Positions 3,608 to 52,660 are shown, counted from the first letter of the stretch. The stretch: DNA of 64,000 nucleotides from an uncultured Collinsella sp. (GCA_900542085.1 UQMK01000001.1:31707-95706); one strand, 5' to 3'. Numbers and translations are program-made. Notes: a model not told the origin generated them from the sequence alone.

Positions 3608-4696
3608 ATGGCACATCGCTCCGTTATTCCGTTTGGCCCGCAACACCCGGTGCTGCCCGAGCCGCTTCATCTGGACCTGGTGATCGAGGACGACCGCGTC
3701 ATCGAGGCAATTCCGCAGATCGGCTTTGTGCACCGCGGACTCGAGAAGCTCACCGAAAAGCGCGACATGCACCAGTTTGGCTACATCGCCGAGCGCATCT
3801 GCGGCATCTGCGCCGTGGGCCACAGCTACGGCTATGCCAGCGCCTGCGAGCGCATGCTCGACATCGAGGTGCCCGGCCGCGCGCAGTATATCCGCACCAT
3901 TTTGCACGAGCTTTCGCGCATCCACTCGCATCTGCTGTGGCTGGGCCTGCTCGCCGATGCCTTTGGCTTCGAGGCGCTGTTCTATCGGTCGTGGACCCTG
4001 CGCGAGCAGATTCTCAAGATCTTCGAGAGCACGTGCGGTGGTCGCGTGATTCTGTCGATCAACGAGATCGGCGGCCTTAAGCACGACATTGAGGACTCCG
4101 AGCTGGCGGGTATTGTCCAGACGCTCGATGCCATGCGTCCCGACTACGAGGCCCTGGTGCATACGTTTTTGGACGACAATAGCTGCGGCGAGCGCCTGCA
4201 TGGCGTGGGCGTGATCAGCAAGAAGGACGCGCTGAATCTGTCGATGGTCGGCCCGTTCGGTCGCGCCTCGGGCGTGGATTACGACGTGCGCATGTTTGGC
4301 GACGGTGCCTATGCAGGCCTGGCAGCATTTGAGCCCATCGTTGCTACCGACGGCGACTGCTATGCCCGCTGCCAGGTGCGTTGTGCCGAGGTCACGCAGG
4401 CCATGGACATCATCAAGGAGCTTGTGGGCAAGATTCCGCACGACGGTATCGGCGGGCGCACCAAGCTCACGCCGGCCGACGGCGCGCGCGGCGAGGTTGT
4501 GATTGAGCAGCCGCGCGGCGAGGCGTACTACTATGTGCGCGGTAACGGCACCAAGAATCTGGACCGTTTTCGCGTGCGCACGCCGACGTCGCAAAATCTG
4601 GCGGGTCTGACGCATGCGTTGCAGGGCGTGCTCCTTGCCAACGTGCCCATGATTATCCTGACCATCGACCCCTGCATTAGCTGCACGGAAAGGTAG
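3608..4696 (+). CDS. echE: Ech hydrogenase large (catalytic NiFe) subunit, NuoD/HycE-like
   Basis: The N-terminal RICGICAVGHSYGYASACE motif and the C-terminal DPCISCTER motif are Ni-binding Cys pairs. The protein ends directly after the motif with no C-terminal extension. There is an AGGAGG RBS. Confidence 0.9.
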   Translation: MAHRSVIPFGPQHPVLPEPLHLDLVIEDDRVIEAIPQIGFVHRGLEKLTEKRDMHQFGYIAERICGICAVGHSYGYASACERMLDIEVPGRAQYIRTILHELSRIHSHLLWLGLLADAFGFEALFYRSWTLREQILKIFESTCGGRVILSINEIGGLKHDIEDSELAGIVQTLDAMRPDYEALVHTFLDDNSCGERLHGVGVISKKDALNLSMVGPFGRASGVDYDVRMFGDGAYAGLAAFEPIVATDGDCYARCQVRCAEVTQAMDIIKELVGKIPHDGIGGRTKLTPADGARGEVVIEQPRGEAYYYVRGNGTKNLDRFRVRTPTSQNLAGLTHALQGVLLANVPMIILTIDPCISCTER

Positions 4697-4703
4697 GCGC
4701 GGC

Positions 4704-5045
4704 ATGAGTTTACTGACATTTGCCAAGACGGCCTTGGGCTCTATGGTCAAGCAGCCGGTCACGGTGTGCTATCCGCAGGAAAAGCTCGTGGCGCCCGAGC
4801 GCCTGCGCGGGCACATCGTTAACGACATGGACGTGTGCATTTGCTGCGGCATGTGCGCGCGTCGCTGCCCGGCGGGCGCGCTTGCGGTCGATCGCAAGGG
4901 CGGTACCTGGTCGATCGATCCGTATGCCTGCGTGGTATGCGGCGAGTGTATCGAAAGCTGTCCCAAACACTGCCTGACTATGGACACCGCCCGCACCCCA
5001 GTCGCAGCGAACAAGACTCCCACGGTAGAAGCTAAGTCGGAGTAG
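4704..5045 (+). CDS. echF: Ech hydrogenase 2x[4Fe-4S] ferredoxin subunit (NuoI/HycF-like)
   Basis: It has two CxxCxxCxxxCP motifs (CICCGMCARRCP and CVVCGECIESCP). Confidence 0.85.
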   Translation: MSLLTFAKTALGSMVKQPVTVCYPQEKLVAPERLRGHIVNDMDVCICCGMCARRCPAGALAVDRKGGTWSIDPYACVVCGECIESCPKHCLTMDTARTPVAANKTPTVEAKSE

Positions 5046-5066
5046 CGCTGGAATAGAGCTGGAATA

Positions 5067-5100
5067 GGGGTCGGTGGGGCTAAATTGCCCCACCGGCCCC
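5067..5100 (+). terminator. GC-rich hairpin downstream of ech operon (14-bp stem, loop TAAATT), no clear T-tract
   Basis: GGGGTCGGTGGGGC / GCCCCACCGGCCCC form an inverted repeat with one G·U pair. Confidence 0.4.
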
Positions 5101-5127
5101 GCACTTAAATGCGCGGTTATGCTGCTG

Positions 5128-5284
5128 CGAACAAAACTATGCCGGTTTACTACGATAAATCGCCTACTCTCAACCACACCGCATTTGGCAAAACAAAAAC
5201 CGCAGGTAGACGGCTCGCAGTTTTGCGAAAAAGCCGCGTGTGATCGGCGACCACGTTTTTATCGTAGTAAACCGGCATAGTTTT
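5128..5284. repeat. MITE-like/palindromic unit 1: 28-bp terminal inverted repeats CAAAACTATGCCGGTTTACTACGATAAA flanking ~97 bp
   Basis: There is a forward copy at 5131-5158 and a reverse-complement copy at 5257-5284. Confidence 0.7.
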
Positions 5285-5387
5285 GAAATGCCACCATATC
5301 AGTACCAGCCCCTGATCTCCCGTGGACAGAGGGAAACGGATCATTTTGGTCCCGCGAGGCTTGCGGAGGCACCCGTGCAGGGCCGCC

Positions 5388-5549
5388 CGAACAAAACTAT
5401 GTCGGTTTACTACGATGAATTCGACATTCCCGACCATGACTGCATTTTTCTAAATATTGCAAGCGTTCTACCTGCGGTTTTGCAAGCGCGCAATTTACCG
5501 TGGTCGAAGGTGGGCGATTCATCGTAGTAAACCGGCATAGTTTTGAAAT
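5388..5549. repeat. MITE-like/palindromic unit 2: near-identical 29-bp inverted repeats (one C/T difference) flanking ~100 bp
   Basis: There is a forward copy at 5391-5419 and a reverse copy at 5520-5548. The left flank CGAACAAAAC and right flank TTGAAATG are shared with unit 1, which points to tandem duplication. Confidence 0.7.
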
Positions 5550-5605
5550 GGTATTAAATCGGTGGCAGCCATTTTGCTATGCCGGGGTGGTCGGTCGTTG
5601 GGTAA

Positions 5606-9710: not shown

Positions 9711-10902
9711 GACTGCGCTTCGCATGGCGCTGGCGCACCCGTTCTATCTGCTTATCTATACGGTGTTCATCTCGCTCATGGGCGTATTCATTGCGGCATC
9801 GGTGAGCTGGAACTCGTCGCAGCTCACCGAGTACAAGCCCTATGATGCCAACGTGATCGTGGTCGACCGCGACGACAGCGACCTTTCGCGTGCGCTTACC
9901 AAGCATCTGGGTTCGCGCTTTGAGCTGGTCACGGGCGTCGACGACGATACGTACGATCTTGCGGACGCGCTCTCCAAGAGCAACAGCGCCAAGGGTAGCG
10001 CCGACTGCGTGTTCTTTATCCCGGAGGGGTTTGAGGGCGACCTCGTTGCAGCCGCTCGCGCGGGGGAGTCCCTGCCCAAGCTCGATGTGACCTACGGTGC
10101 CGGCACCATGGCGGCGGCGCTTTCGTCTGCCGAGGCCTCGCGCTGGGTCTCGCTCGCGGGCGCTGCGGCCGCGCTTGAGCCCACTGCCTCCAACGGTGAC
10201 GTCGCCAAGGCTGCCGATCATGCGGCCGCGGAGCGTGCCAAGGTCGAGATCGAGCAGGTCAAGGTTGACTCGACTGCCGCCGCCACGCTCGAGTCGTACT
10301 TCAACTTTGGCGCGTACGCGATTATATCGTCGGTCATCGTGTCGGTGGGGCTGGTGTTCTCGGGCATGAACGAGCCCGAGCGCGTGCGTCGTATGGATGC
10401 CGGCCCAATCTCCGAGCGCCAGCGTTCGCTTGCCGTGTTTGCGGCCGCCGCCGTACTCACCGTCTGCATCTGGTTTGTGTCGAGCATGATGGGCGTCGTG
10501 GGCTTTGCCGGCGCGGTCGCCGAGGTCGGCGTGGGCCGTGTGTGCCTGGCGCTGGCGGCGACGTTTGCCCTTGCGTGCACGCCTCTGGCCGTTGGCTTTG
10601 CCCTTTCGAGCCTGGGTGCGCGCGAGGAGCTGCTCAACGGCGTGGGCAACCTGCTCGGCATGCTCATGACGTTTTTGGGCGGCGCCTGGATGCCGCTGTC
10701 GCTCATGGGCTCGGCCGTGCAGACCGTTGCGCATTTTGTGCCGACGTTTTGGGTGAACGACGCGATCAGCAAGGCGCTCGCCGCGGACCTGACGTCCGCC
10801 GTGCTGGGGGACATCGCCTGCGACCTGGGCGTCACGGTGCTCTTCGCCGTCGCCATCGCCGCCGCAGGCCTGGCCCTCGCACGCGCCAAAACCCGCGCCT
10901 AG
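9697..10902 (+). CDS. ABC-2 family transporter permease (second permease)
   Basis: It is a polytopic membrane protein. A GGAAGGAG RBS lies before MSTFKTAL. Confidence 0.7.
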   Translation: MSTFKTALRMALAHPFYLLIYTVFISLMGVFIAASVSWNSSQLTEYKPYDANVIVVDRDDSDLSRALTKHLGSRFELVTGVDDDTYDLADALSKSNSAKGSADCVFFIPEGFEGDLVAAARAGESLPKLDVTYGAGTMAAALSSAEASRWVSLAGAAAALEPTASNGDVAKAADHAAAERAKVEIEQVKVDSTAAATLESYFNFGAYAIISSVIVSVGLVFSGMNEPERVRRMDAGPISERQRSLAVFAAAAVLTVCIWFVSSMMGVVGFAGAVAEVGVGRVCLALAATFALACTPLAVGFALSSLGAREELLNGVGNLLGMLMTFLGGAWMPLSLMGSAVQTVAHFVPTFWVNDAISKALAADLTSAVLGDIACDLGVTVLFAVAIAAAGLALARAKTRA

Positions 10903-11340
10903 CCACCTAGTCATCGGGGACGTTCTTAAACGACTAGTCATCGGGGACAGTCTTTGCCGATTCGCCGGCTCGCCGGCCGCGTTGGCAAGGACTGTCCCTA
11001 TCTGCCGGCAGAAAAGGAACGTCCCCAGCTGTTGGGTGGCGAGGCACTCATTTAAGTCTGTCCCCAATGAGTAGCATCGGATTTCACCGTGTTGGGCGAC
11101 ATCGCCTGCGACCTAGGCGTCACGGTGCTCTTTGCCGTGGCCATCGCCGCCGCAGGCCTCGCCCTCGCACGCGCCAAATTCCGCGTCTAGCCACCTAGTC
11201 ATTGGTCATTGGGGACATTCTTAAACGACTGGTCATTCAAGAACGTCCCCAATGACTAGTCGTCATTTAAGAACTCCCCCAATGACTGGTCTGAAATAAA
11301 TCCCCGGCCTCGCTCCAAAATAGTTCGCCAAGGTTTACTA
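10903..11340. repeat. Nest of MITE/REP-like units (TAGTCATYGGGGACRTTCTTAAAYGAC and inverted copies) containing a 103-bp duplicated copy of the permease gene 3' end (11088-11190 ≈ 10800-10902)
   Basis: There are multiple copies in both orientations at 10907-10950, 10995-11020, 11041-11075 and 11191-11290. The duplicated gene tail encodes VLGDIACDLGVTVLFAVAIAAAGLALARAK(F/T)R. Confidence 0.75.
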
Positions 11341-12104: not shown

Positions 12105-14771
12105 ATGACACCTCTCGCAAAACGTCTCCCGCGCGAGCTGCGCCGCAATATCGGCAAGTATCTGGGCATCTTTTTGCTTATGTGCGGAAGCATCGCCCTT
12201 ACATCGGGCTTTTTGCTCGCAGCGCATTCCATCGGTTGCCTTATCGACGACATGCGCGATGCGTACACGATTGAGGACGGCCGCGTGACCACCTCTTTCG
12301 AGGCCACCAAAGACCAGCTCAAGGCAGCCGAGGGTGCAGCCGGCGACGTCGGCGGCGTCACGCTCTACAAGAACTTCTCCATCGACGCCATCATCAAAAA
12401 GGCGTCCGGCGACGACGGCACCAAGCGCACGCTGCGCACCTATGCGCACCGCACCAAGGTCGATATCGCGTCCTACTGTGAGGGCAAGGAGCCCAAGACG
12501 GACGATGAGGTGGCAATCGACCGTGTCTTCGCCACCAACAACGATCTCGCCGTGGGCGATAAGGTCGAGCTCGAGGGTCGCACCTACACCATCTGCGGCA
12601 TCATGACTCAACCCGATAGCCAGGCGCTGTTCCTCAACAACTCCGACTTTACGGTGAACACCATCACGTACGGCGTGGCCGAGGTCACCGATGCCGGCTT
12701 TGCCGCGCTCGAGGATGCCGGTGGCGCACCCGCCTACACCTACTCCTTCGCCTTTGCCGATCGCGACCTCCCCACCGCGGATCGCATCGACGCCGAGCAA
12801 GATATGGTCGAGGCACTGACCGACGCCGATGCGCGCGTGGATGACCTCATCGACGCCGATTCCAACCAGGGCATTGGCTATGCGCGCGACGACGTAGACG
12901 GCGACTCCATGATGTGGATGACGCTGCTCGACATCATCATCGTGATCATGGCGTTTGTCTTTGTGGTGCTCACTGACGCCACCATCGAGGAGGAGAGCGC
13001 CATCATCGGCACACTGCTCGCCAGCGGCTATCGCCGTCGCGAGATCGTCCTGCACTACCTGGCGCTTCCCGCCATCGTGGGCGTGCTCGCGGCGCTTTTG
13101 GGCACCGCGCTCGGCATTGCGTTCTTTACCGAGCCCATGCGAGGCCTCTATTACGGTTCGTACAGCCTGCCGCCCTTCCAGGTGTACTGGAGCTGGGAGA
13201 TCTTTGTGAAGTGCGCCGTGGTTCCCGCCGCCGCGCTCATCCTCATCACGCTGGTGGGTCTGCTTCGCAAAATGGGCAAGACGCCGTTGCAGTTCCTTCG
13301 TCACGAGGCGAGCGGCAAATCGGGCACCAAGCGCGGCCTGCAGCTGCCGGAGCGCATGGGCTTTGTTTCCCGCTTCCGCTTGCGTATCTTCCTGCGCAAC
13401 CTGGGCAACTTTGCCACGCTCTTCGTGGGCATTGCGTTTGCCTCGCTGCTGCTGCTCTTTGGCCTGGCGATTCTGCCCACGATGACGCACTACGCCGACA
13501 ACCTCGAGACGAGTCTGGTCGCCGAGCACCAGTACACGCTCAAGGCGCCGCTGGAGCTCGAGGGCACTGCCGAGGAGCGCGAGCAGTGGTCGGCACTCGA
13601 GCGCTTGCAGTCGGTTGACGGTGCACTGCTTTCCGCCGCCCAGGATGCCGATGACGAGCTTGACGACGCGGCCGATGCGGCGCAGACGGCAGCCGATGCC
13701 GCGACGGCATCTCCGTCTGCCGAGAGCCTGGCCGCGGCGCAGGACGCGCTCGCCAGGGTCCAGGACAAGAAGGATGCGCTCTACGCGCGCCTTGACGATC
13801 TTGCCGATGCCCTCGGCTGCGACCGTGATGAGGCTATCGACCTGATCGACAAAGCCTCCAAGATTGACAATGACAACGACGATATTCACCCGGTCAATAC
13901 GACCGACAACGGCGCGGGCGCAATCGCGCAAGCCGAGAAATACGCCGTCTACCAGCTGCAATACGACCGCGGCGATGGAAATGGGCAGGAGACGATTTCC
14001 GTCTATGGCATTTCATCCGATTCGCGCTATTGGAAAGACCTCAACGTCGGCGATGGGCGCATCGTCTTTGGCGGCGGTCTGCTCGATAAGTTTGGCTGGA
14101 GCGAGGGTCAGAAGGTCACGCTCGGCGACAAGTACGAGGGCGAGCATTATTCCCTTGAGTACGCGGGCAAGGACTGTGCCTGGGGCTCCAAGTCGGACAT
14201 GAATATCTATATGAGTATCGACGACTTTAACGAGCTGTTCGACAACGACGCCGCCTACTTTAACGGCTATGTGAGCGACGAGAAGCTCGATCTCGATGCT
14301 CGTTACTTTGCCGGCGACACCACGCCCGACGACATGCGCGCCGTGGGCGACCAGTTCATCGGCATGATGAGCAAAATGATCGGCATGATGGTCGGGCTCG
14401 CGGTGTTTATCTTCCTGCTGTTTATGTACCTGCTGACCAAGGCTGTGATCGACCACAGTGCCCGGTCGATCAGCTACATGAAAGTCTTTGGCTATCGCGA
14501 TAGCGAGATCTCGCATCTGTACATCCGCTCGATCACGCTGTGTGTGGTGGCGTCGCTCGTGCTGAGCCTGCCGGTCATTATTGGCTCGCTCACGGCCATC
14601 TTCCGCTCGATGCTGCTCGCCTACAACGGCAATATCGAGATCTACGTGCCCGCTTGGTCCATGGTTGCATGCGTCGGCATTGGCTTTGCGACCTACCTGG
14701 TCGTGGCGCTGCTACACACGCGCTCCATCAAGCGCGTGAGCCTGGCCGAGGCCCTCAAAGTGCAGGAGTAG
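12105..14771 (+). CDS. FtsX-family ABC permease with two large extracytoplasmic domains (MacB/Bce-like, tandem FtsX modules) and an acidic low-complexity insert
   Basis: It lies downstream of a MacB-like ATPase. There are two TM bundles each followed by an extracellular domain. An acidic D/E/A-rich segment sits at aa ~500-560. Confidence 0.8.
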   Translation: MTPLAKRLPRELRRNIGKYLGIFLLMCGSIALTSGFLLAAHSIGCLIDDMRDAYTIEDGRVTTSFEATKDQLKAAEGAAGDVGGVTLYKNFSIDAIIKKASGDDGTKRTLRTYAHRTKVDIASYCEGKEPKTDDEVAIDRVFATNNDLAVGDKVELEGRTYTICGIMTQPDSQALFLNNSDFTVNTITYGVAEVTDAGFAALEDAGGAPAYTYSFAFADRDLPTADRIDAEQDMVEALTDADARVDDLIDADSNQGIGYARDDVDGDSMMWMTLLDIIIVIMAFVFVVLTDATIEEESAIIGTLLASGYRRREIVLHYLALPAIVGVLAALLGTALGIAFFTEPMRGLYYGSYSLPPFQVYWSWEIFVKCAVVPAAALILITLVGLLRKMGKTPLQFLRHEASGKSGTKRGLQLPERMGFVSRFRLRIFLRNLGNFATLFVGIAFASLLLLFGLAILPTMTHYADNLETSLVAEHQYTLKAPLELEGTAEEREQWSALERLQSVDGALLSAAQDADDELDDAADAAQTAADAATASPSAESLAAAQDALARVQDKKDALYARLDDLADALGCDRDEAIDLIDKASKIDNDNDDIHPVNTTDNGAGAIAQAEKYAVYQLQYDRGDGNGQETISVYGISSDSRYWKDLNVGDGRIVFGGGLLDKFGWSEGQKVTLGDKYEGEHYSLEYAGKDCAWGSKSDMNIYMSIDDFNELFDNDAAYFNGYVSDEKLDLDARYFAGDTTPDDMRAVGDQFIGMMSKMIGMMVGLAVFIFLLFMYLLTKAVIDHSARSISYMKVFGYRDSEISHLYIRSITLCVVASLVLSLPVIIGSLTAIFRSMLLAYNGNIEIYVPAWSMVACVGIGFATYLVVALLHTRSIKRVSLAEALKVQE

Positions 14772-14853
14772 TCATCGGGGACGTTTCTAAAAGACTAGTC
14801 GCTGGGGACATTCTTTCGCCGCCCGGCAGGAAAGGGACGTCCCCAACGACTAG
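14769..14853. repeat. MITE/REP-like element of the TAGTCATCGGGGACGTT… family; its first TAG is the stop codon of the permease gene
   Basis: It reads TAGTCATCGGGGACGTTTCTAAAAGACTAGTC…GGGACGTCCCCAACGACTAGG. It is a shorter version of the element at 10907-11035. Confidence 0.7.
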
Positions 14854-19735: not shown

Positions 19736-20581
19736 ATGGCAGGCCTGTTCAACATCCTTAAGGTCACCGTCAGCGAGGACAAGATCTGCGCGCATGTGCT
19801 GGTGAACCCCGGCATGCCGCTCATGACCTCGGAGGACATCGAGGCTACGGCGCGCGTGTACTACCTGGTGCCCGCGATTGCCAAGCACCTGTGCCTGGGC
19901 GATTCCGGTCGCGAATTCCAGGACTGCATGGGCCAGACCGAGCTTTGCCATCTGCTGGAGCACGTGACGGTCGAGCTCATGAACGAGACCGGTCTCGCTG
20001 GCAGCATTTCGTGCGGCCGCACTCGCGTGAGTGAGCACGATGAGCGTGTCTTTGAGGTCGAGCTTTCGTGTCCCGACGACGCGCTGGCCATCGGTGCGCT
20101 GTCTTCGGCGACCTTTATGATGGATTGGGCATATCTGCATGCCGATCAGCCCGCTCCCGACGTGGACGGTACGGTCGCGGGCCTGCGCAACCTGGTACTG
20201 GGCATGCGTGCCGAGGCCGAGGGCAAGGACCCGCACGAGGCCGTCGCCGCCGCGAACGCCGAAGGCGAGGCCGGGGACACGACCGAGGGCGAGGCGCCTG
20301 CCGAGGCTGCCGCCGAGTCTGTCAACGATGCCCCTGCCGAGGAGACCGTCGAGGCCGAGCCCGCGGAGCCCCAGGGCGTCCCGAGCTTTGACGACGAGCC
20401 GCAGGAGGCAATCGATACCGAGGGCGCGACTGCCGAAAGCCACGAGGCCCCCGCTGCCGTCTACGGTGGCGCGGCGACGGCTCCGGTGGCCCCCGCGCGC
20501 GAGGGAGCGCTGCCGCTCGTTGACGGCGCCGGCGAGGACCCGGGCGCTACAGTGGCCATGCCTGCCATGCCGCAGGAGTAG
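19736..20581 (+). CDS. Hypothetical Cys-rich protein with HxxEH motif and long acidic Ala/Glu-rich C-terminal tail
   Basis: The ORF has a GAGTTATGG RBS-like context. It contains a HLLEH motif and six Cys in the N-terminal 120 aa. No family was recognised. Confidence 0.5.
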   Translation: MAGLFNILKVTVSEDKICAHVLVNPGMPLMTSEDIEATARVYYLVPAIAKHLCLGDSGREFQDCMGQTELCHLLEHVTVELMNETGLAGSISCGRTRVSEHDERVFEVELSCPDDALAIGALSSATFMMDWAYLHADQPAPDVDGTVAGLRNLVLGMRAEAEGKDPHEAVAAANAEGEAGDTTEGEAPAEAAAESVNDAPAEETVEAEPAEPQGVPSFDDEPQEAIDTEGATAESHEAPAAVYGGAATAPVAPAREGALPLVDGAGEDPGATVAMPAMPQE

Positions 20582-21934: not shown

Positions 21935-23341
21935 ATGCGCCAAAACGGATCATATTCACACGGACGCTCGGGCTCGCGTCCGACGGCGCGCCGCGATCTG
22001 GGGCAGCTGCCCAGCGGTCAGCGCAAGCGTCACCGTAAGCCCGGCGCGATGTATCTCAACCATAGCCGCGGCTTTAGCGACCGCAGCGCTCGCATCGGCA
22101 ACGGCCGCACGCCCCGCCGTCCGTCTCGCCTGCCCTATGCGCTCATCGCCGTGGGTTGCGCGCTCGTGCTGTTTATCGCTGCCGTCGTGGGCTACGTCAA
22201 CCGCAGCGTGGATGTCGTCCTCAACGGCCAGGAGACTGCGGTGCGCGTCGGCTCTACGCTGCAAAATCTCATCGACGACCAGGAGTTGACCGATACCTAC
22301 GACGCCGGGGACTTGCTGGCCGTTGACGACAGCGTGCTTACTCGCCATGGCGGCGAAAAGCTGTCGGTAAAAGTGGACGGCAAGCGCGTAAAACAGGGCA
22401 AGTGGAAAAGCCGCGAGCTTACGGGCGGCGAGAAGGTGACGGTCAAAGACGGTCGCGACACGTATGAGAAGCATGAGGTCCAGGCGACGGTTATCGAGCC
22501 CAAGCTTAAGGTCGAGGGCACGGGTGCCATCGAGTATGTCAAGACGTGGGGTATCCAGGGTCGCTCTGAGGTGTGGGTCGGCGAGCAATCGGGCAAGACG
22601 CAGGACCGCGGCGAGGTCGTGCCCGCCACCGATTGCGTGGTCGAGTGCGCGAGCGTGGCGCCCAAGGGCAACGAAAAGTACGTTGCGCTGACATTTGACG
22701 AGGGCCCGAGCGGCGCGACCAAGCAGATCTTGCAGGTGCTCAAGGAAAAGGGCGTCACCGCGACGTTCTTCCTGTTGGGCGATGCGGCCGAGGCCTCGCC
22801 CGCCACGGCCAAGGCGATTGTCGATGCCGGCTGCGAGGTCGGCTCCAACAGTTACAGCGACGAATCGCTCAAGGGCAAGGATCGCGATGCGGTGCGCGAA
22901 CAGGTTTCGAAGGGCACCGAGGCGATCAAGTCCGCGACCGGAACGTCGACGATGCTTTTGCGTGCTCCCTACGCAGCCTTTGACGAGCAAAACTGGATTG
23001 ATGCGATGGACCTGGTGTCTGCCGTGGTCTCGTGGAATATCGATTCGGGCGACTGGCTGCTCAACGGTGCCGACGAGCAGGTCTCGACGGTGCTCGATTC
23101 GGTGACGCCGGGCAACATTGTGTTGCTGACCGATAACGATGAATGCGCCGAGCAGACGCTCGAGGCGCTGCCGCAGATTATCGACGGGCTTATTGCCGAC
23201 GGCTACAAAATCGTGACATTGAGCGATCTGGTCAAGACGGATACATCGCTGAGCAAAAAGCTCACCTCGCTGACGAAGGCCGCCATGCCCAAAAACGCCG
23301 TGTTCCCCCAGCTCGCCGAAGATGACGACACCACAGACTAG
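21935..23341 (+). CDS. Membrane-anchored polysaccharide deacetylase (NodB/CE4) with DUF348/G5-like N-terminal region
   Basis: It has a TM helix and the NodB motif TFDEGP. There is a GGGAGGG RBS. Confidence 0.8.
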   Translation: MRQNGSYSHGRSGSRPTARRDLGQLPSGQRKRHRKPGAMYLNHSRGFSDRSARIGNGRTPRRPSRLPYALIAVGCALVLFIAAVVGYVNRSVDVVLNGQETAVRVGSTLQNLIDDQELTDTYDAGDLLAVDDSVLTRHGGEKLSVKVDGKRVKQGKWKSRELTGGEKVTVKDGRDTYEKHEVQATVIEPKLKVEGTGAIEYVKTWGIQGRSEVWVGEQSGKTQDRGEVVPATDCVVECASVAPKGNEKYVALTFDEGPSGATKQILQVLKEKGVTATFFLLGDAAEASPATAKAIVDAGCEVGSNSYSDESLKGKDRDAVREQVSKGTEAIKSATGTSTMLLRAPYAAFDEQNWIDAMDLVSAVVSWNIDSGDWLLNGADEQVSTVLDSVTPGNIVLLTDNDECAEQTLEALPQIIDGLIADGYKIVTLSDLVKTDTSLSKKLTSLTKAAMPKNAVFPQLAEDDDTTD

Positions 23342-23371
23342 TCATGTAAGAACGTCCCCAATGACTATGTC
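23336..23371. repeat. Single MITE/REP-like unit (GACTAGTCATGTAAGAACGTCCCCAATGACTATGTC), overlapping the stop codon of the deacetylase gene
   Basis: It belongs to the same family as 10907, 14769, 43233 and 49737. Confidence 0.7.
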
Positions 23372-31287: not shown

Positions 31288-31390
31288 GTTGTCTTTTTGG
31301 ATGGGGCTTTTTTTGACTGGTATGATTGGTGCGACCATTCGAACCAGCTAAAAGAGCCCCGTCCCAAATTGACTATCGAGAGGATCTGCT

Positions 31391-32818: not shown

Positions 32819-33009
32819 GGGCCCAAACCATCACAAAGGTGTCTGTCCCCTTTGTGGCAGCTTGGGCAGGCGGGTATCAAAAAGTGTCAGACGGGACGGT
32901 TGCCGGGCACCTGTGCGCGAAAAGAAGTATCGGCCTGCCCCGTTGTCGTTGAGCGACGCGTTGTTTGCAGGGATACTGAGCCTATGACAACAGCGTGCGA
33001 AAGGATTGA

Positions 33010-43232: not shown

Positions 43233-43310
43233 CTAGTCATTGGGGACGTACTTAAATGAGTGCTTCTCATTGGTGACGTGCTTAAATGAGTGGCAGTTGG
43301 GGACGCTCCT
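43233..43310. repeat. Two tandem MITE/REP-like units (TCATTGGGGACGTACTTAAATGA, TCATTGGTGACGTGCTTAAATGA) plus partial third, in divergent promoter region
   Basis: They belong to the same family as the other TAGTCATTGGGGACG elements. Confidence 0.7.
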
Positions 43311-43457
43311 TGCCGAGTTAGAGGTCGCGCGTGCCCCTTCTGGGCCATGCGGCTCAAAATCGCGGCGTCATGCGGACGGCTGTGATCGAATTTGCAGCAT
43401 TTCGAGCTCGGCTTCGATATTGAGATTGGTTCTTTATTAAAATAGGTCTCCAGACAA

Positions 43458-45023: not shown

Positions 45024-45026
45024 CTA

Positions 45027-45066
45027 ACCACCACAAAGGGGACGGGCACCTTTGTGGTGGTTTTTT
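45027..45066 (+). terminator. Intrinsic terminator ACCACCACAAAGG-GGACGGGCA-CCTTTGTGGTGG-TTTTTT (repeat family copy 1)
   Basis: It is a perfect 12-bp stem followed by T6. Confidence 0.85.
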
Positions 45067-48737: not shown

Positions 48738-48746
48738 CGCACCAAA

Positions 48747-48786
48747 ACCACCACAAAGGGGACAGGCACCTTTGTGGTGGTTTTGC
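48747..48786 (+). terminator. Intrinsic terminator, second copy of ACCACCACAAAGGGGACRGGCACCTTTGTGGTGGTTTT family
   Basis: It matches 45027-45066 except for one loop base. Confidence 0.85.
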
Positions 48787-48874: not shown

Positions 48875-49558
48875 ATGGAGGCTTACAAGCAAGAGTTCAT
48901 CAAGTTCATGGTCGAGTCCGACGTCCTTAAGTTCGGCAGCTTTACGCTCAAGAGCGGCCGTCAGTCTCCGTTCTTTATGAATGCCGGCGCTTACGTGACG
49001 GGCTATCAGCTCAAGAAGCTGGGAGAGTATTACGCCCAGGCCATCCACGATAACTTTGGCGATGATTTTGATGTACTGTTTGGACCGGCCTACAAGGGTA
49101 TTCCGCTGGCCGTCGTGACCGCAATTGCCTACCACGAGCTGTACGGCAAGGAGGTCAAGTACTGCTGCGACCGCAAGGAGGCCAAGGACCACGGCGCCGA
49201 CAAGGGCAACCTGCTGGGCTACGAGCCCCAGGACGGCGACCGCGTGGTCATGGTCGAGGATGTCACCACCAGCGGCAAGTCCATCGACGAGACCTATCCC
49301 AAGGTTAAGGCTGCTGCCGACGTCGAAATCAAGGGCCTGATCGTGTCCCTCAACCGCATGGAGGTCGGCAAGGGCGGCGTGACCACCGCACAGAAGGAGA
49401 TCGAGGCCAAGTACGGTTTCCCCGTCGCGAGCATCGTTTCCATGGCCGAGGTCGTCGAGACCCTCTACAACCACGAGATCGATGGCAAGGTCGTCATCGA
49501 TGACGAGCTCAAGGCCGCCATCGACGCCTACTACGAGCAGTACGGAGCTCGGGAGTAG
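48875..49558 (+). CDS. pyrE: Orotate phosphoribosyltransferase
   Basis: It has the PRPP-binding motif VVMVEDVTTSGKS, and the length matches OPRTase. Confidence 0.9.
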   Translation: MEAYKQEFIKFMVESDVLKFGSFTLKSGRQSPFFMNAGAYVTGYQLKKLGEYYAQAIHDNFGDDFDVLFGPAYKGIPLAVVTAIAYHELYGKEVKYCCDRKEAKDHGADKGNLLGYEPQDGDRVVMVEDVTTSGKSIDETYPKVKAAADVEIKGLIVSLNRMEVGKGGVTTAQKEIEAKYGFPVASIVSMAEVVETLYNHEIDGKVVIDDELKAAIDAYYEQYGARE

Positions 49559-49561
49559 GTA

Positions 49562-49735
49562 GTTACGCGGGTTTACCAACCCGCGTAACCAGTTGACGCT
49601 GCAAGCCCGCCAGAGCGGCAATCTGCCTTTCAGCTTCGGCGGCATGACCAGAAGGTCAATGCCGCCTCGTTTCAAGGCACCTTGCTCGCTCTGACGGGCT
49701 TTCGCTGTCGTTGCCAAAACATCGGCGTTGCCGGA
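49562..49735 (+). repeat. ~170-nt structured element, copy 1 (hairpin GTTACGCGGGTT-TACC-AACCCGCGTAAC; long-range stem GCCCGCCAGAGCG/CGCTCTGACGGGC enclosing hairpin GGCGGCAT-GACCAGAAGGTCA-ATGCCGCC)
   Basis: A second copy at 52385-52560 shows compensatory base changes in all three helices. Confidence 0.7.
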
Positions 49736-49736
49736 G

Positions 49737-49772
49737 TAGTCATTGGGGATGTTCTTAAATGACTAGTCAGAA
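49737..49772. repeat. MITE/REP-like unit TAGTCATTGGGGATGTTCTTAAATGACTAGTC
   Basis: It belongs to the dispersed family; this is the fifth locus in the window. Confidence 0.7.
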
Positions 49773-49774
49773 AT

Positions 49775-49838
49775 GAGCGTGGATAATCTCCCGGTTTTGG
49801 CCTGTGTGCGGGCTCAAAGTGGGAGATTATCCACGCTC
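49775..49838. other. Large perfect hairpin (18-bp stem GAGCGTGGATAATCTCCC/GGGAGATTATCCACGCTC, ~28-nt loop) between convergent pyrE and rpiR-like gene
   Basis: The inverted repeat is seen directly in the sequence. Confidence 0.6.
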
Positions 49839-49871
49839 GTTAGATAAGCGTCCGAAAATCCGCGCTCGTCG

Positions 49872-50726
49872 CTACTTGAGCCCGGGCAGACGGGTGTAGG
49901 GAAACGAGCGCTCCAGGAATTCGGAGCAGCGGGCGTAGTCTTTGGCGAAGTAGCTGCTGTAGAGTGAATCGAGCACGTATTGCACGGCGATGTGGCTGGC
50001 GAACTGCGTGATGCGATGCGTCATACTCTCGTGGTCACTTACCGTGAGGTAGGCGGCAAAGCCAGGGTGAATGCGAGCGCAATAAGGCGTGCCGATGACG
50101 ATGACCGGGACATGCCGGCTGCTGAGAATCGGCAAGATGTCCTTGAGGTTGGGGGCAAGGCCGCTGTAGGAGATGACGATTGCCGCATGGTCGGGACCCG
50201 AGGCGAGCGCCGTACGCACCTGGACCTCAGCGCCGTCGTGGCACGTTGCGCTTTTGCCGGCGGAGAGCAGACGGTCGCGGAACATTCCTGCTGGATAGAG
50301 GTTGTGCGAGCCCGTGTAGATGTCGACCTGTCGGGCGTTTGCGATGAGCTTGGCGGCGTGGTCAAGCTGCGTGGGGTCGAGTAGTTCCTGCGTTTCGGCC
50401 AGCGTGGTCTGGTAGAGCCCTTCCATGCGCTCCATAACCTGCGCAGGGGTGGACGTAGCGTCGAAGGGAAAGTTGATGTCCACGTCTCGCCGGTTTCCCG
50501 CCTCGGTTGCCAGGCGGATGAGCTCGACCTTGAGGTCCTTAAAGCCCTCGAGGCCGAGCTTTTTGCAAAAACGGTGCACGCTCGCGACCGAAACGTTGGT
50601 GCGTGCGGCAAATTCCTTAATGGAAAGCCCGCGGATGTCCTCGCCCATGGCAAGGGCCGAGATGCCGAGCTGTTGCTCGGTGGGGGTGAGGCCCTGCGCC
50701 TCGGTGATCTTGCGTTTGATATCCAT
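49872..50726 (-). CDS. MurR/RpiR-family transcriptional regulator (HTH_6 + SIS domain)
   Basis: The N-terminal HTH (LSIKEFAARTNVSVASVHRFCKKLGLEGFKDLK) and the C-terminal SIS-like domain match the family. The start was chosen at MDIKRK. Confidence 0.8.
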   Translation of the reverse strand: MDIKRKITEAQGLTPTEQQLGISALAMGEDIRGLSIKEFAARTNVSVASVHRFCKKLGLEGFKDLKVELIRLATEAGNRRDVDINFPFDATSTPAQVMERMEGLYQTTLAETQELLDPTQLDHAAKLIANARQVDIYTGSHNLYPAGMFRDRLLSAGKSATCHDGAEVQVRTALASGPDHAAIVISYSGLAPNLKDILPILSSRHVPVIVIGTPYCARIHPGFAAYLTVSDHESMTHRITQFASHIAVQYVLDSLYSSYFAKDYARCSEFLERSFPYTRLPGLK

Positions 50727-51052
50727 CCGAACTCCCACACTCGGCAAACCTGCCAAAAAGGGACAGGTTTATTTTGGCACGTTTCGGTCGGTATCAGGAA
50801 GTGTCAGGGGCGGGGCGGCGGCGGTCTGTGGGCGCGAAAAGAAGTGTCGGGTTTGGCGTGCCCGCTTCTGCCCGTCCCGTGCGCAGGCGATACTCAGCTT
50901 ATCGACCCGCGATGCAAAGGAGATACTCATCCCACGAGCACTACCGGGAAGGGCTTGCGATTCGAGCCCTCACCTTAGCAATTTGATCATTTGGCACTAT
51001 AATCACCATAGGCATGCGCATAACGTTGCGCTTAATCAAGAGGAGAAAACAT

Positions 51053-51589
51053 ATGGGTCTGTTTGACATGTTTAAGAAGAAGGCTGAGCCCGCGGCAGCT
51101 GCTGCTCCGGCCTCCATCTCTGCTTCTGCTGGCGCCGACGTGCTGTGCTCGCCTGTCAAGGGCAAGGTCATCAAGATGGCCGACGTGCCCGACCCCGTCT
51201 TTGGTGGCGAGGTTCTGGGCAAGGGTTGCGCTGTGTGGCCCGAGGACGACCTGGTCTACGCTCCCTGCGACGGCAAGGTGACCGTCACCATGGGTCACGC
51301 CGTAGGCCTGCAGTCCGATAGCGGCATCGAGGTTCTGGTGCACGTTGGCGTCGATACCGTCAACATGAACGGCGACGGCTTCGAGGGCTTCGTCAAGGCC
51401 GACGACGTCGTCAAAGCTGGTCAGCCCATACTCAAGATCGACCGCGCCAAGATTGCTGCTGCCGGTTACAAGGACTGCGTCGTCATGGCCGTGTCCAACA
51501 CCGCCGAGTTCGCTGACGTCGAGCTCGCCGTCGAGGCCGAGTCTGCCGTCGCCGCCGGTGACGCTATCGTTAGGGTCGTCCGCAAGTAG
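51053..51589 (+). CDS. PTS glucose-family EIIA component (Crr-like)
   Basis: The region GHAVGLQSDSGIEVLVHVGVDTVNMNGDGF matches the EIIA-Glc active-site region. There is an AGGAGA RBS. Confidence 0.85.
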   Translation: MGLFDMFKKKAEPAAAAAPASISASAGADVLCSPVKGKVIKMADVPDPVFGGEVLGKGCAVWPEDDLVYAPCDGKVTVTMGHAVGLQSDSGIEVLVHVGVDTVNMNGDGFEGFVKADDVVKAGQPILKIDRAKIAAAGYKDCVVMAVSNTAEFADVELAVEAESAVAAGDAIVRVVRK

Positions 51590-51612
51590 TCTGCGGCAAC
51601 ATAAGGATGTGC

Positions 51613-51646
51613 AAGGGTGGTCGGGTTATCCGGCTGCCCTTTTTTA
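51613..51646 (+). terminator. Intrinsic terminator after EIIA gene (stem with G·U pairs + TTTTTTAAT)
   Basis: It reads AAGGGTGGTCGG-GTTATC-CGGCTGCCCTT followed by T6. Confidence 0.6.
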
Positions 51647-51823
51647 ATAGACTGAGCAGGCGCATTTTATTGCAGGGGGGCTTGCTTTACGGGCCATTCG
51701 TTCGTCAAATTGAGCCGTCCGCGCTTTTGCGACGTAGGGGTCTGGACGGAGCCGCTAATATGGACTTGCTGTTACGACGTGCGCTGCGCAGGGAACGCGG
51801 CGCCGCTTGTTTGGAGGAATGTC

Positions 51824-52381
51824 ATGAAAAAGAAGCTGCTGCTTGCGCCCCTGATGGCTGCCCTGGTCGCGTGCGTGGTTTTGCTTTCCGGCTGCGGAGG
51901 GCCTTCGGTGGAAGAGCTCATCACCAACGACCTTACGAGCCAGTTTGACGAGATCAAGAACGGCGGCGATGATTTCCTCTCCGGTCTGGAAGAGGCTTCG
52001 GGCGACGAGTTTGAGCAACTGGGCATCGATCCCAAGGAGTACGCCAAGAGCTATCTCGAGGGCTTTGATTACAAGATCGGCGATGTGACGGTCGATGAGG
52101 ACAAGGGCACTGCGACCGCCGAGGTTACCATCACCTGCAAGTCCATGAATAAGATCGTCGAAGATTTCGCCACCCAGTATCAGGAGAAGGTCGCCGCACT
52201 CGATACGATGCCTTCCGAGGATGACCTGTACAAGATGGCCGGCCAGGTCATGGTCGACGTGACCAAGGCCGCTAAGACCAAGGACACCAAGGTCACCTTT
52301 AAATATTCCGCCAACGAGGATAACGAGTGGTCTGCCGACGATTCCGCAACCACCGAGATGATGAATGCGATGATGAGCTAG
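51824..52381 (+). CDS. Lipoprotein, unknown function
   Basis: MKKKLLLAPLMAALVACVVLLSGCGG is a lipobox signal, and there is a GGAGGAAT RBS. Confidence 0.7.
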   Translation: MKKKLLLAPLMAALVACVVLLSGCGGPSVEELITNDLTSQFDEIKNGGDDFLSGLEEASGDEFEQLGIDPKEYAKSYLEGFDYKIGDVTVDEDKGTATAEVTITCKSMNKIVEDFATQYQEKVAALDTMPSEDDLYKMAGQVMVDVTKAAKTKDTKVTFKYSANEDNEWSADDSATTEMMNAMMS

Positions 52382-52384
52382 GGG

Positions 52385-52560
52385 GTTACGCGGTAGTTCG
52401 TTACGGCGTTTTACCAAACGCCGTAACTGCTCGACGCTGCGCGGGCACCAGAGCGACAACTTGTCATTCAAAGAGGACGGCATGACCAGAAGGTCTATGC
52501 CGTCCTCTTTTCATGCCAATTTGTTCGCTCTGGTGCCCGCTCGCTGTCCGTCCTCTACCT
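52385..52560 (+). repeat. ~170-nt structured element, copy 2 (hairpin GTTACGGCGTTT-TACC-AAACGCCGTAAC; 16-bp long-range stem GCGGGCACCAGAGCGA/TCGCTCTGGTGCCCGC; inner hairpin GAGGACGGCAT-GACCAGAAGGTCT-ATGCCGTCCTC followed by TTTTC)
   Basis: It aligns with copy 1 at 49562. A 9-nt remnant GTTACGCGG at 52385-52393 matches the copy-1 hairpin arm exactly. Confidence 0.7.
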
Positions 52561-52660
52561 GCGGCGTTGCCATGGTGCGGCGCTTGGGGGACACTTCTTT
52601 GGTGCGGGGGCAGCTAAAAGAGTCCCGTCCCACATTAGCTGCCCGTGGGGGGATGTGCGG

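Follow-up and report, generated by a model that had tools for sequence, protein, structure and literature searches.

The stretch of DNA considered here, hereafter called the window, comprises 64,000 nt of an uncultured Collinsella sp. (GCA_900542085.1, UQMK01000001.1:31707-95706) and carries two copies of a palindromic intergenic element with a unit length of about 170 nt. As a preliminary description of this DNA had placed them, the two alignable segments lie on the + strand, 3' of pyrE and of a lipoprotein gene, respectively. Copy A (49562-49732) starts 3 nt past the TAG stop codon of pyrE, a gene whose identity is supported by a TIGR00336 match of 154.8 bits against a cutoff of 106.8. Copy B (52385-52571) likewise starts 3 nt past a TAG stop (52379-52381), that of a gene whose product has an N-terminal signal peptide and an LLSGC lipobox. 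Both copies are flanked by convergent genes, which are an RpiR-family regulator (beyond copy A) and a HAD hydrolase. When aligned, copies A and B show 81% mean column identity. Each consists of a GC-rich hairpin next to the stop codon (H1), a linker, a long imperfect hairpin with a distinct apical domain, and a tail, as follows:

49556-49558, + strand: stop codon TAG of pyrE, the TIGR00336-confirmed gene
49560-49562, + strand: second TAG after the pyrE stop, overlapping the first base of H1 (GAGTAG-G-TAG-TTACG)
49562-49589, + strand: H1 of copy A, GTTACGCGGGTT-TACC-AACCCGCGTAAC, with a 12-bp stem
49590-49602, + strand: linker of copy A, a variable 5-nt CAGTT plus the conserved GACGCTGC
49595-49709, + strand: long imperfect hairpin of copy A (subtype A), GACGCTGC...GCCCGCCAGAGCG...apical domain...CGCTCTGACGGGC...GCTGTC
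49638-49677, + strand: apical domain of copy A, stem GGCGGCATGACC/GGTCAATGCCGCC and then a weak T-tract, TCGTTTCAAGG
49646-49657, + strand: tip of copy A, GACC-AGAA-GGTC, within the apical domain
49706/49707, + strand: junction CGCT^GTCG of copy A, the position of an IS110-family insertion in other genomes
49710-49732, + strand: tail of copy A, GTTGCCAAAACATCGGCGTTGCC
49737-49769, + strand: companion repeat unit of a different family, TAGTCATTGGGGATGTTCTTAAATGACTA+GTCA, often found 3' of the element
52379-52381, + strand: stop codon TAG of the signal peptide/lipobox (lipoprotein) gene
52385-52399, + strand: composite junction of copy B, the orphan left arm of an older H1 (GTTACGCGG) and then TAGTTC, the 5' leader of the incoming module
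52400-52427, + strand: H1 of copy B, GTTACGGCGTTT-TACC-AAACGCCGTAAC
52428-52440, + strand: linker of copy B, TGCTC and then the conserved GACGCTGC; the precise deletion in L128 has its left edge here
52433-52548, + strand: long hairpin of copy B (subtype B), GACGCTGC-GCGGGCACCAGAGCGA...TCGCTCTGGTGCCCGC-TCGCTGTC
52473-52515, + strand: apical domain of copy B with intrinsic-terminator anatomy, A-rich CATTCAAA, stem GAGGACGGCATGACC/GGTCTATGCCGTCCTC, T-tract TTTTCATG
52484-52495, + strand: tip of copy B, GACC-AGAA-GGTC, within the apical domain
52549-52571, + strand: tail variant of copy B, CGTCCTCTACCTGCGGCGTTGCC

All helices quoted in the preliminary description are present in both segments. The long-range stem it gave for copy A contains one C.A mismatch, and the 16-nt arms GCGGGCACCAGAGCGA/TCGCTCTGGTGCCCGC of the copy B long hairpin are 100% complementary. 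A shared segment that it took to be unpaired, TTCGCTCTG, in truth reads TCGCTCTG (CTCGCTCTG in copy A) and is paired with CCAGAGCGA. The 15-mer CATGACCAGAAGGTC occurs exactly twice in the 64-kb window, and a covariance model built from 23 diverse copies scores the two window copies at 163.6 and 167.3 bits (E ~1e-35), with no further true match in the window, which thus holds exactly two copies. The extra GTAG that follows the pyrE stop is missing in some strains with identical PyrE (L137; such labels denote comparison sequences). In copy A, the conserved GACGCTGC forms the 5' foot of the long hairpin and also marks a breakpoint of recombination. As for the composite start of copy B, the complete older H1 is found at this locus in L124 and L133, and in L127 TAGTTC stands directly 3' of the gene.

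The element belongs to a large family. An exact-pattern scan (CCAGAGCG...GACCAGAAGGTC...CGCTCTG), with one genome per species, gave at least 120 loci among the matches listed, essentially all of them titled Collinsella. The density is two copies in the 64-kb window, one in 100 kb of unselected C. aerofaciens sequence searched with the covariance model, and 10 places in a 900-kb C. aerofaciens replicon searched with blastn, which suggests a copy number of roughly 25-45 per Collinsella genome. A phage collection and viral contigs yielded no copies, and a phage origin was therefore dropped. Searches of the literature on Collinsella or Coriobacteriia combined with repetitive extragenic palindromes (REPs) or miniature inverted-repeat transposable elements (MITEs) found no prior description. 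The microbiome RNA-structure catalogue of Fremin and Bhatt (2021) contains Collinsella candidates, which are not mappable by sequence to the element.

Across this family the full unit runs from the stop codon through a gap of -1 to +7 nt, H1, the linker, GACGCTGC, the long hairpin and GCTG(T)C to the tail, and it has a YAG leader that reads TAG beside genes. H1 is a 28-nt GC-rich hairpin with the variants GTTACGCGG, GTTACGGCG, GTTGCGGCG and GTTCCGCC, and is separated from GACGCTGC by a variable linker of 4-5 nt. The long imperfect hairpin, of about 115 nt, occurs in three main subtypes (A, B and C) and rarer ones, and is followed by the conserved GCTG(T)C and a tail in three variants. Its apical ~35 nt, which carry the tip GACC-AGAA-GGTC, have TTCAA(A) as 5' flank and (T)TTTCA as 3' flank. 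The tip hardly varies, and the same holds for the CAA/TTG pairs and for one TTCA-containing tract per arm. The parts also occur in other combinations. H1 modules stand in tandem at some loci, H1 alone is found in short intergenic regions between tandem genes (L042, L099), the long hairpin lacks H1 after proB and after map, and chimeric arms are seen in L003 and L056. Wherever copies share a locus, all pairs are direct, in a single orientation. The element is a dispersed, modular, polar palindromic repeat and most probably not a discrete noncoding RNA (ncRNA).

The preliminary description had reported base changes that compensate each other and preserve the structure, and with 23 copies this observation became much stronger. 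Over 49 pairs in these diverse copies, standard pairs fill 97.1% of cells, compared with 84.9% after shuffling and 33-41% when the 3' partners are slid by 1-3 columns, so that pairing is kept family-wide, far above both controls. Two-sided changes affect 28 of the 49 pairs (14.4 when shuffled, 4-10 when the 3' partners are slid), a count reached by none of 500 shuffles; by helix, they fall on 5 of 11 pairs of H1 and 17 of 27 pairs of the long hairpin. Whole stems are exchanged. The stem CCAGAGCG/CGCTCTGG is replaced by GCATTTGG/CTCAAATGC in L103, by CCTAAGCG/CGCTTAGG in L014 and L091, by CCCTGATGCCCAA/TTGGGCATCAGGG in the copy after map, and by CCAGGGCG/CGCCCTGG in L136. Very divergent copies with whole stems swapped retain the tip and the flanking TTCA tracts; in L137 the tip is changed to GATC-GAAA-GATC.

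The further claim that such covariation reveals selection on RNA structure rather than on primary sequence could not be established. The window copies fold much better than shuffled sequence (z = -8.0 for A and -10.9 for B), and folding of their reverse strands is at least as favourable (z = -10.5 and -13.3), which makes the element a near-perfect DNA palindrome. It nevertheless has a definite polarity, since the covariance model scores the window copies at 164-167 bits forward and 40-57 bits in reverse. An A.C mismatch is a wobble only on the opposite strand, and this asymmetry was used as a test of strand: among 4753 cells from 97 unique copies, the non-Watson-Crick cells include 63 G.T and 53 A.C, similar counts by which the pairing is not assignable to one RNA strand. 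The helices differ in this respect: a fixed T.G in the GTTCC variant tilts H1 towards the + strand, and the outer long stem is tilted towards the - strand. Events at the DNA level were also observed, namely the exact inversion of a 19-bp tip segment, conserved in several species, and the precise excision of the long hairpin in L128. Near-exclusive Watson-Crick pairing would be expected if both strands had to fold as RNA, as for a bidirectional terminator, or if the palindrome arms were corrected against one another in replication or repair, and the covariation is therefore no proof of an RNA-only constraint.

These data bear directly on the proposal, made in the preliminary description, of a discrete structured ncRNA, that is, a small RNA (sRNA) or a factor-bound cis-regulatory RNA in the 3' untranslated region, under selection at the RNA level. 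The strong covariation, the conserved unpaired nucleotides (the tip loop and two facing TTCA-containing segments) and the definite polarity are consistent with it. A conserved ncRNA gene would not be expected to have whole modules swapped or deleted among near-identical strains, as seen here, and a flipped tip is tolerated in several species, G.U is not in excess over A.C, and no promoter of its own is apparent. An Rfam scan of the window gave nothing at the gathering score, and with E up to 10, Collinsella-1 included, only chance-level miRNA/snoRNA matches of at most 23 bits and no family match. Moreover, the copies, of which there are tens, are physically bound up with the stop codons of a wide range of unrelated genes. 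The data lend no support to a free-standing sRNA or ncRNA gene, and we consider this explanation highly improbable.

To place the copies relative to genes, genes were called with a codon-usage caller trained on the deposited annotation, which recovered 129 of 131 annotated stops; calling by longest open reading frame (ORF) or by GC content at third codon positions (GC3) was dropped as unreliable because antisense ORFs are long and native GC3 is 0.6-0.8. The validated caller called no gene over any copy. A same-strand gene ends within 20 nt of the element in 94 of 107 copies, and in 7 more the gene end lies 44-50 nt away, behind a duplicated H1 module, giving a total of 101 of 107. The next gene is convergent in 44 of 81 cases (54%), compared with 40 of 185 (22%) in the background; the remaining 37 are tandem, with a median of 220 nt to the next gene. 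At least 25 independent upstream gene contexts are represented, each with TAG as the major stop, and the upstream genes include the housekeeping genes pyrE, tyrS, map and proB. Orthologous gene ends are occupied by the element in 126 of 128 cases, across many Collinsella species. With respect to the upstream gene, the element occupies the 3' untranslated region on the same strand, at the end of the transcription unit.

The adjacent stop codons are TAG in 79 copies, TAA in 15 and TGA in none, against a background of 93, 74 and 20, respectively. Among 86 unique junctions, TAG occurs 80 times in the 8 nt before H1, with a TAGTT peak in 27 and an offset that is not fixed; the base preceding TAG is variable, and a fixed GTAG tetranucleotide is lacking. 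Ahead of internal H1 modules, which are not adjacent to any gene, stands CCTTAG or CCTCAG. These leaders, together with the orphan arm and TAGTTC of copy B, indicate that the module is accompanied by a YAG leader, which next to a gene is retained as TAG and often does duty as the stop codon. Readthrough or recoding of UAG into the element was considered and rejected, as the offset from stop to H1 spans all three frames. The overall usage of stop codons is unusual for a genome with a GC content near 60%, with TAG in 43-50%, TAA in 40-44% and TGA in only 11-13% of cases (window-wide; L121-L123), and prfB, encoding release factor 2 (RF2), is present (L121, 31227-32375).

Such a proximity to stop codons raises the possibility of a coupling to translation termination, in which H1 near a UAG or UAA stop, both read by RF1, would tune termination or ribosome release, for example through stalling and transfer-messenger RNA (tmRNA), and so set the output of the upstream protein. 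In nearly all copies the start of H1 falls between -1 and +7 nt relative to the stop, the usage of stops beside the element departs from the background, H1-only modules stand between tandem genes, and the fixed T.G wobble of the GTTCC variant fits only pairing on the + strand, i.e., in the mRNA. E. coli REPs within 15 nt of a stop are reportedly associated with ribosome stalling and tmRNA recruitment (Liang, Rudd and Deutscher, 2015). Nevertheless, the offset from stop to H1 is not fixed and uses all three frames, orthologues switch between TAG and TAA (the latter 15% of the stops), TGA is in any case rare in the genome as a whole, and the long hairpin is left unexplained. As internal modules carry CAG, TAG may be a leader inherited with the module and not a functional requirement. 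We therefore regard this coupling as improbable.

In subtypes B and C (61 copies), the apical GC-rich hairpin leads into a T-tract, TTTTCATG or TTTTTCAT, with 5-6 T among 8 nt, and an A-tract, CATTCAAA or ATTCAAAA, precedes the apical stem; as far as can be judged from sequence, the succession of A-tract, hairpin and T-tract in these subtypes is the anatomy of a bidirectional intrinsic terminator. A strict rule of hairpin plus T-tract gave a match inside 39 of 87 copies, and of 66 control gene ends followed by 40 nt or more of intergenic sequence, 25 had a canonical terminator. No canonical terminator was found 3' of either window copy, though such terminators exist nearby. At the one orthologous site that lacks the element (L085, L109), its place is taken by a classic terminator hairpin and T-tract, preceded by a remnant of the H1 left arm. 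The tracts of subtype A were read by hand, because the automatic measurement mis-registered this subtype, and the subtypes did not differ in gene context (convergent or tandem). Separately from the element, a repeated hairpin, AACCACCACAAAGGGGAC.GGCACCTTTGTGGTGGTT, with A- and T-tract flanks occurs in the window at 45026-45064, 48746-48784 and 32826-32864, in copies that are 97% identical. This hairpin resembles a canonical bidirectional terminator, and one copy lies just 5' of pyrE.

Comparison of strains showed a rapid turnover of the element. Where the upstream genes of orthologous pairs are at least 90% identical, the elements are less than 85% identical in 56 of 185 pairs, and 64 pairs at unrelated loci have elements at least 97% identical. 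An identical 185-aa lipoprotein in 11 genomes (10 strains and the window) is followed by four structural spacer alleles, including that of L128, in which only H1 is left in a 62-nt spacer. Identical PyrE proteins in 11 genomes are followed by at least five alleles, whose breakpoints coincide with GACGCTGC and with the borders of H1; L136 and L139 combine the same H1 with a swapped long hairpin, the breakpoint lying in the GACGCTGC linker. Modules are shuffled, replaced, inverted or deleted between close strains, and the alleles compared here indicate that this shuffling proceeds on a timescale much shorter than that of point substitution. A search for an empty site on which to test for a target-site duplication found only replacement (L085/L109) and deletion (L128) alleles, and no target-site duplication was seen at the element junctions.

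The spacers around both copies contain further features. Strains with identical PyrE carry a Fic-domain gene or an HTH_3 regulator in the spacer 3' of the element, and the accessory genes in this spacer differ among L144, L148, L151 and L152 (4518-5690) and L147 and L149 (~4542-5172); the repeat-rich spacer 3' of pyrE may be an insertion hot spot. An inverted repeat with 31-nt arms, AATGAGCGTGGATAATCTCCC...GGGAGATTATCCACGCTCGTT, lies at 49772-49841 of the window, between copy A and the RpiR-family gene; it is kept in L087, L103, L114 and L134 and absent from L135, L136 and L140. The motif CAGCTAAAAGAGYCCCGTCCCA is shared by 31345-31370 and 52611-52636 of the window and is part of a hairpin, GGCAGCTAA...TTAGCTGCC, 3' of copy B, which is conserved across strains at that locus.

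A turnover of this kind could also be displayed by mobile or recombining DNA that is selfish and non-autonomous (MITE- or PATE-like) and does nothing for the host, whose hairpins would be structures for recognition or processing at the DNA level, whose compensated changes would result from hairpin-templated correction, and for which gene ends would be merely tolerated insertion sites. The multi-copy state and the near identity of copies at unrelated loci agree with this explanation, as do the different alleles in strains with identical flanking proteins, the tip inversion and long-hairpin excision, the equal folding of both strands with similar G.T and A.C counts, and the YAG/TAG leader that moves with the module. 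It accounts poorly for the lack of target-site duplications and of a clean empty site (the alternative alleles being replacements or deletions), for the occupancy of the same sites across many Collinsella species, and for the conserved tip and TTCA tracts, which are retained even where copies have diverged widely; phage and viral collections are without copies, and the 94% polarity and stop-codon adjacency exceed what tolerance alone predicts. No autonomous parent with these ends was seen, though no genome-wide search for a parent insertion sequence (IS) was made. A tblastn search of 1.08 Mb with approximate queries for IS200 TnpA and for RAYT transposases gave one IS200-like gene (L044, 5965-6700), a Y1 transposase gene with 54% identity to the IS200 TnpA query (E = 7e-52). 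It was rejected as a parent, since its end hairpins are unrelated (CCACCCG...CGGGTGG; AAACCACCC...GGGTGGTTT) and it lies ~700 nt from a copy and is not flanked by elements. Taken together, we consider a purely selfish element unlikely.

Another idea is that a recombinase or a structure-specific DNA-binding protein recognises the element as its DNA site (a cruciform or hairpin site, Xer/dif-like or attC-like), with H1 as the core site. H1 consists of two inverted arms of 10-12 bp around a short spacer, L085 and L109 keep only its left half and loop, the orphan left arm of copy B is joined to a new module, and breakpoints recur at fixed linkers. The arms, however, co-vary instead of keeping a fixed protein-binding sequence, no integrase or Xer-type gene stands beside copies in the annotated stretches, and the upstream genes are housekeeping genes and not cassettes. 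The order of the H1 arms, GTTAC...GTAAC, is the reverse of the attC order RYYYAAC...GTTRRRY, and an integron attC site was rejected both on this order and on gene content (pyrE, tyrS, map and proB upstream). A site of this general type has, in our estimation, a low probability.

The element is itself a target of insertion. In other genomes, CGCT^GTCG in the 3' foot of the long hairpin is interrupted at exactly this position by an IS110-family element (Pfam DEDD_Tnp_IS110 and Transposase_20). L101, L102 and L153 provide three junctions in at least two gene contexts, all with the sequence TTTCGCT|CATATGACCC:

L153, 4333-5862: IS110-family element, with junctions at 4333/4334 and 5862/5863; the ends of L101 and L102 share the left junction

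Both junctions are seen in L153, with CT at each and the tail GTCGTTGCC intact after the IS; the target in the element can be written GGGCTTTCG-CT-GTCGTTGCC. It looks like a site-specific target of the bridge-RNA type, present in many copies per genome. REPs are known as site-specific targets of IS110-family elements (Tobes and Pareja, 2006; PMC1525189).

A second dispersed repeat family, TAGTCATTGGGGACGTTCTTAAATGACTA (TAGTC...GGGGAC...GACTA), occurs in both orientations, often as hairpin-forming pairs and frequently 3' of the element:

Window, 10908-10955, 11203-11288, 14769-14816, 23336-23367, 43234-43311 and 49737-49769: units of the TAGTCATTGGGGACGTTCTTAAATGACTA repeat

At about 20207-20217 and 21553-21575 of L121, an element with an IS110-family transposase splits a unit of this family (TAGTCGTTGGG, IS, GGACGTTCTTGAATGACTA), which indicates that the TAGTCATTGGGGACGTTCTTAAATGACTA family also behaves as a REP-type IS target.

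Among known systems, the element compares closely with REPs and bacterial interspersed mosaic elements (BIMEs). All are dispersed, extragenic, imperfect palindromes in 3' untranslated regions, all are modular, mosaic and strain-variable, and IS110-family insertion sequences use all of them as natural targets. In E. coli, about 60% of REPs lie between convergent, 40% between tandem and 1% between divergent genes, a distribution matched by the element (54% convergent, 46% tandem and ~0% divergent), and a combined role as terminator and mRNA stabiliser has been shown for these REPs. Unlike REP units of 20-40 nt, of which there are hundreds, the Collinsella unit has ~170 nt with two different hairpins and is present in tens per genome. 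Its polarity to the upstream gene is fixed, whereas BIME units alternate in orientation; it directly abuts a TAG or TAA stop and is without the fixed GTAG tetranucleotide; and its host belongs to the Actinomycetota (Coriobacteriia), not to the proteobacteria. To our knowledge, strict polarity, coupling to TAG stops and an embedded terminator have not been described for REPs.

Bidirectional intrinsic terminators share with subtypes B and C the A-tract, GC-rich hairpin and T-tract, as well as the location at transcription-unit ends with convergent enrichment, and the element takes the place of a canonical terminator at one orthologous site. They differ in that the Collinsella hairpin is embedded in a longer co-varying palindrome with a separate stop-proximal hairpin 5' of it, that its tip is conserved across unrelated loci, that the copies form one homologous family and did not evolve independently, and that subtype A is poor in its T-tract. 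Correia/NEMIS elements of Neisseria, ERIC/IRU and MITE-like repeats are 100-170 bp long, form long hairpins when co-transcribed, and have discrete subtypes and chimeric copies; in the known cases they affect mRNA processing or termination. The arms of the Collinsella long hairpin are also inverted repeats, with sequences that co-vary between subtypes, but no TA or other target-site duplication and no defined terminal inverted repeats linked to a known transposase were found for the element in the sequences examined, and its strict orientation and stop-codon adjacency are not known from those families. Mycobacterial interspersed repetitive units (MIRUs) are actinobacterial intergenic repeats oriented with the flanking genes, with ends that overlap or abut the upstream stop codon. 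They are, however, 40-100-bp tandem direct repeats with small ORFs that couple genes and not palindromic hairpins, and they lie within operons, whereas the Collinsella element lies mostly at convergent gene ends.

Considering all this, we hypothesize, with a probability that we put at about 55%, that the family represents composite, polar, palindromic intergenic repeats of Collinsella that behave like a REP/BIME terminator and stabiliser. Of the three options offered by the preliminary description, the REP-like terminator module is thus the one favoured, on account of the dispersed gene-end copies, the convergent enrichment, the terminator hairpin of subtypes B and C, the module swapping and the IS110 insertion. 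Anatomy and position suggest that the element most probably serves termination, bidirectional in subtypes B and C, together with protection of the upstream mRNA. It would be transcribed together with the upstream gene, and the apical hairpin with its T-tract would end transcription; by virtue of the preceding A-tract, the same hairpin would also terminate the transcript of the convergent gene on the other strand. H1 and the long stem may block 3'-to-5' exonucleases and in this way stabilise the upstream mRNA. The need to fold on both strands, together with hairpin-templated repair of the palindrome, would account for the strict Watson-Crick form of nearly all pairs and for the compensated changes, and copies would spread and become homogenised by recombination through the conserved linkers.

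Several observations weigh against this interpretation. The T-tract is weak in subtype A (TCGTTTCA), to which window copy A belongs, and the TTCA invariant in either arm has a specificity beyond the needs of a generic U-tract. A transcript that ended in the apical T-tract would lack the outer stem's 3' arm, and a terminator role would then leave the covariation of the outer stem unexplained. The long hairpin is lost in L128 and hence dispensable at the lipoprotein locus, and the wobble test is neutral. The strong coupling to TAG and the strict polarity are not predicted by a simple role as terminator and stabiliser. The copy number of tens per genome and the unit of ~170 nt are unlike those of classical REPs, and no REP-associated tyrosine transposase (RAYT) was found in the tblastn search of 1.08 Mb with approximate queries. 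Unit size, the lack of a fixed GTAG and the single orientation separate the element from REPs in the strict sense, and we therefore do not call it a REP.

In a more speculative model, which we think is distinctly unlikely, the element is a self-propagating gene-end cassette. Such a polar module would bring its own stop codon, a stop-proximal hairpin and a bidirectional terminator, would install itself without a classical transposase by a hairpin- or linker-directed route, and would have its apical domain (the tip and the two facing UUCA segments) read by a dedicated Collinsella factor.

Collinsella is a common genus of the human gut whose non-coding genome is essentially uncharted, and this family stands at the 3' end of dozens of genes per genome and differs among strains with identical flanking genes. 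If the element sets termination and mRNA stability, as our preferred REP/BIME-like interpretation holds, it would be a hidden cause of expression differences between strains. Assembly breaks and mis-annotation are further effects of the element. The family extends the idea of dispersed palindromic gene-end modules to a Gram-positive lineage of the Actinomycetota, and its fixed IS110 site offers a natural multi-copy target for the study of bridge-RNA-guided recombinases in gut Actinomycetota.

Two other repeats were noted in the window. The segments 10799-10917 and 11087-11205 form a 119-nt direct repeat, 92% identical and with a spacing of 288 nt, within intergenic DNA where TAGTC...GGGGAC units are abundant. 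At 5132-5570 lies a low-GC cluster of perfect inverted and direct repeats of 28-29 nt (CAAAACTATGCCGGTTTACTACGATAAA and partners), which is unrelated to the element.

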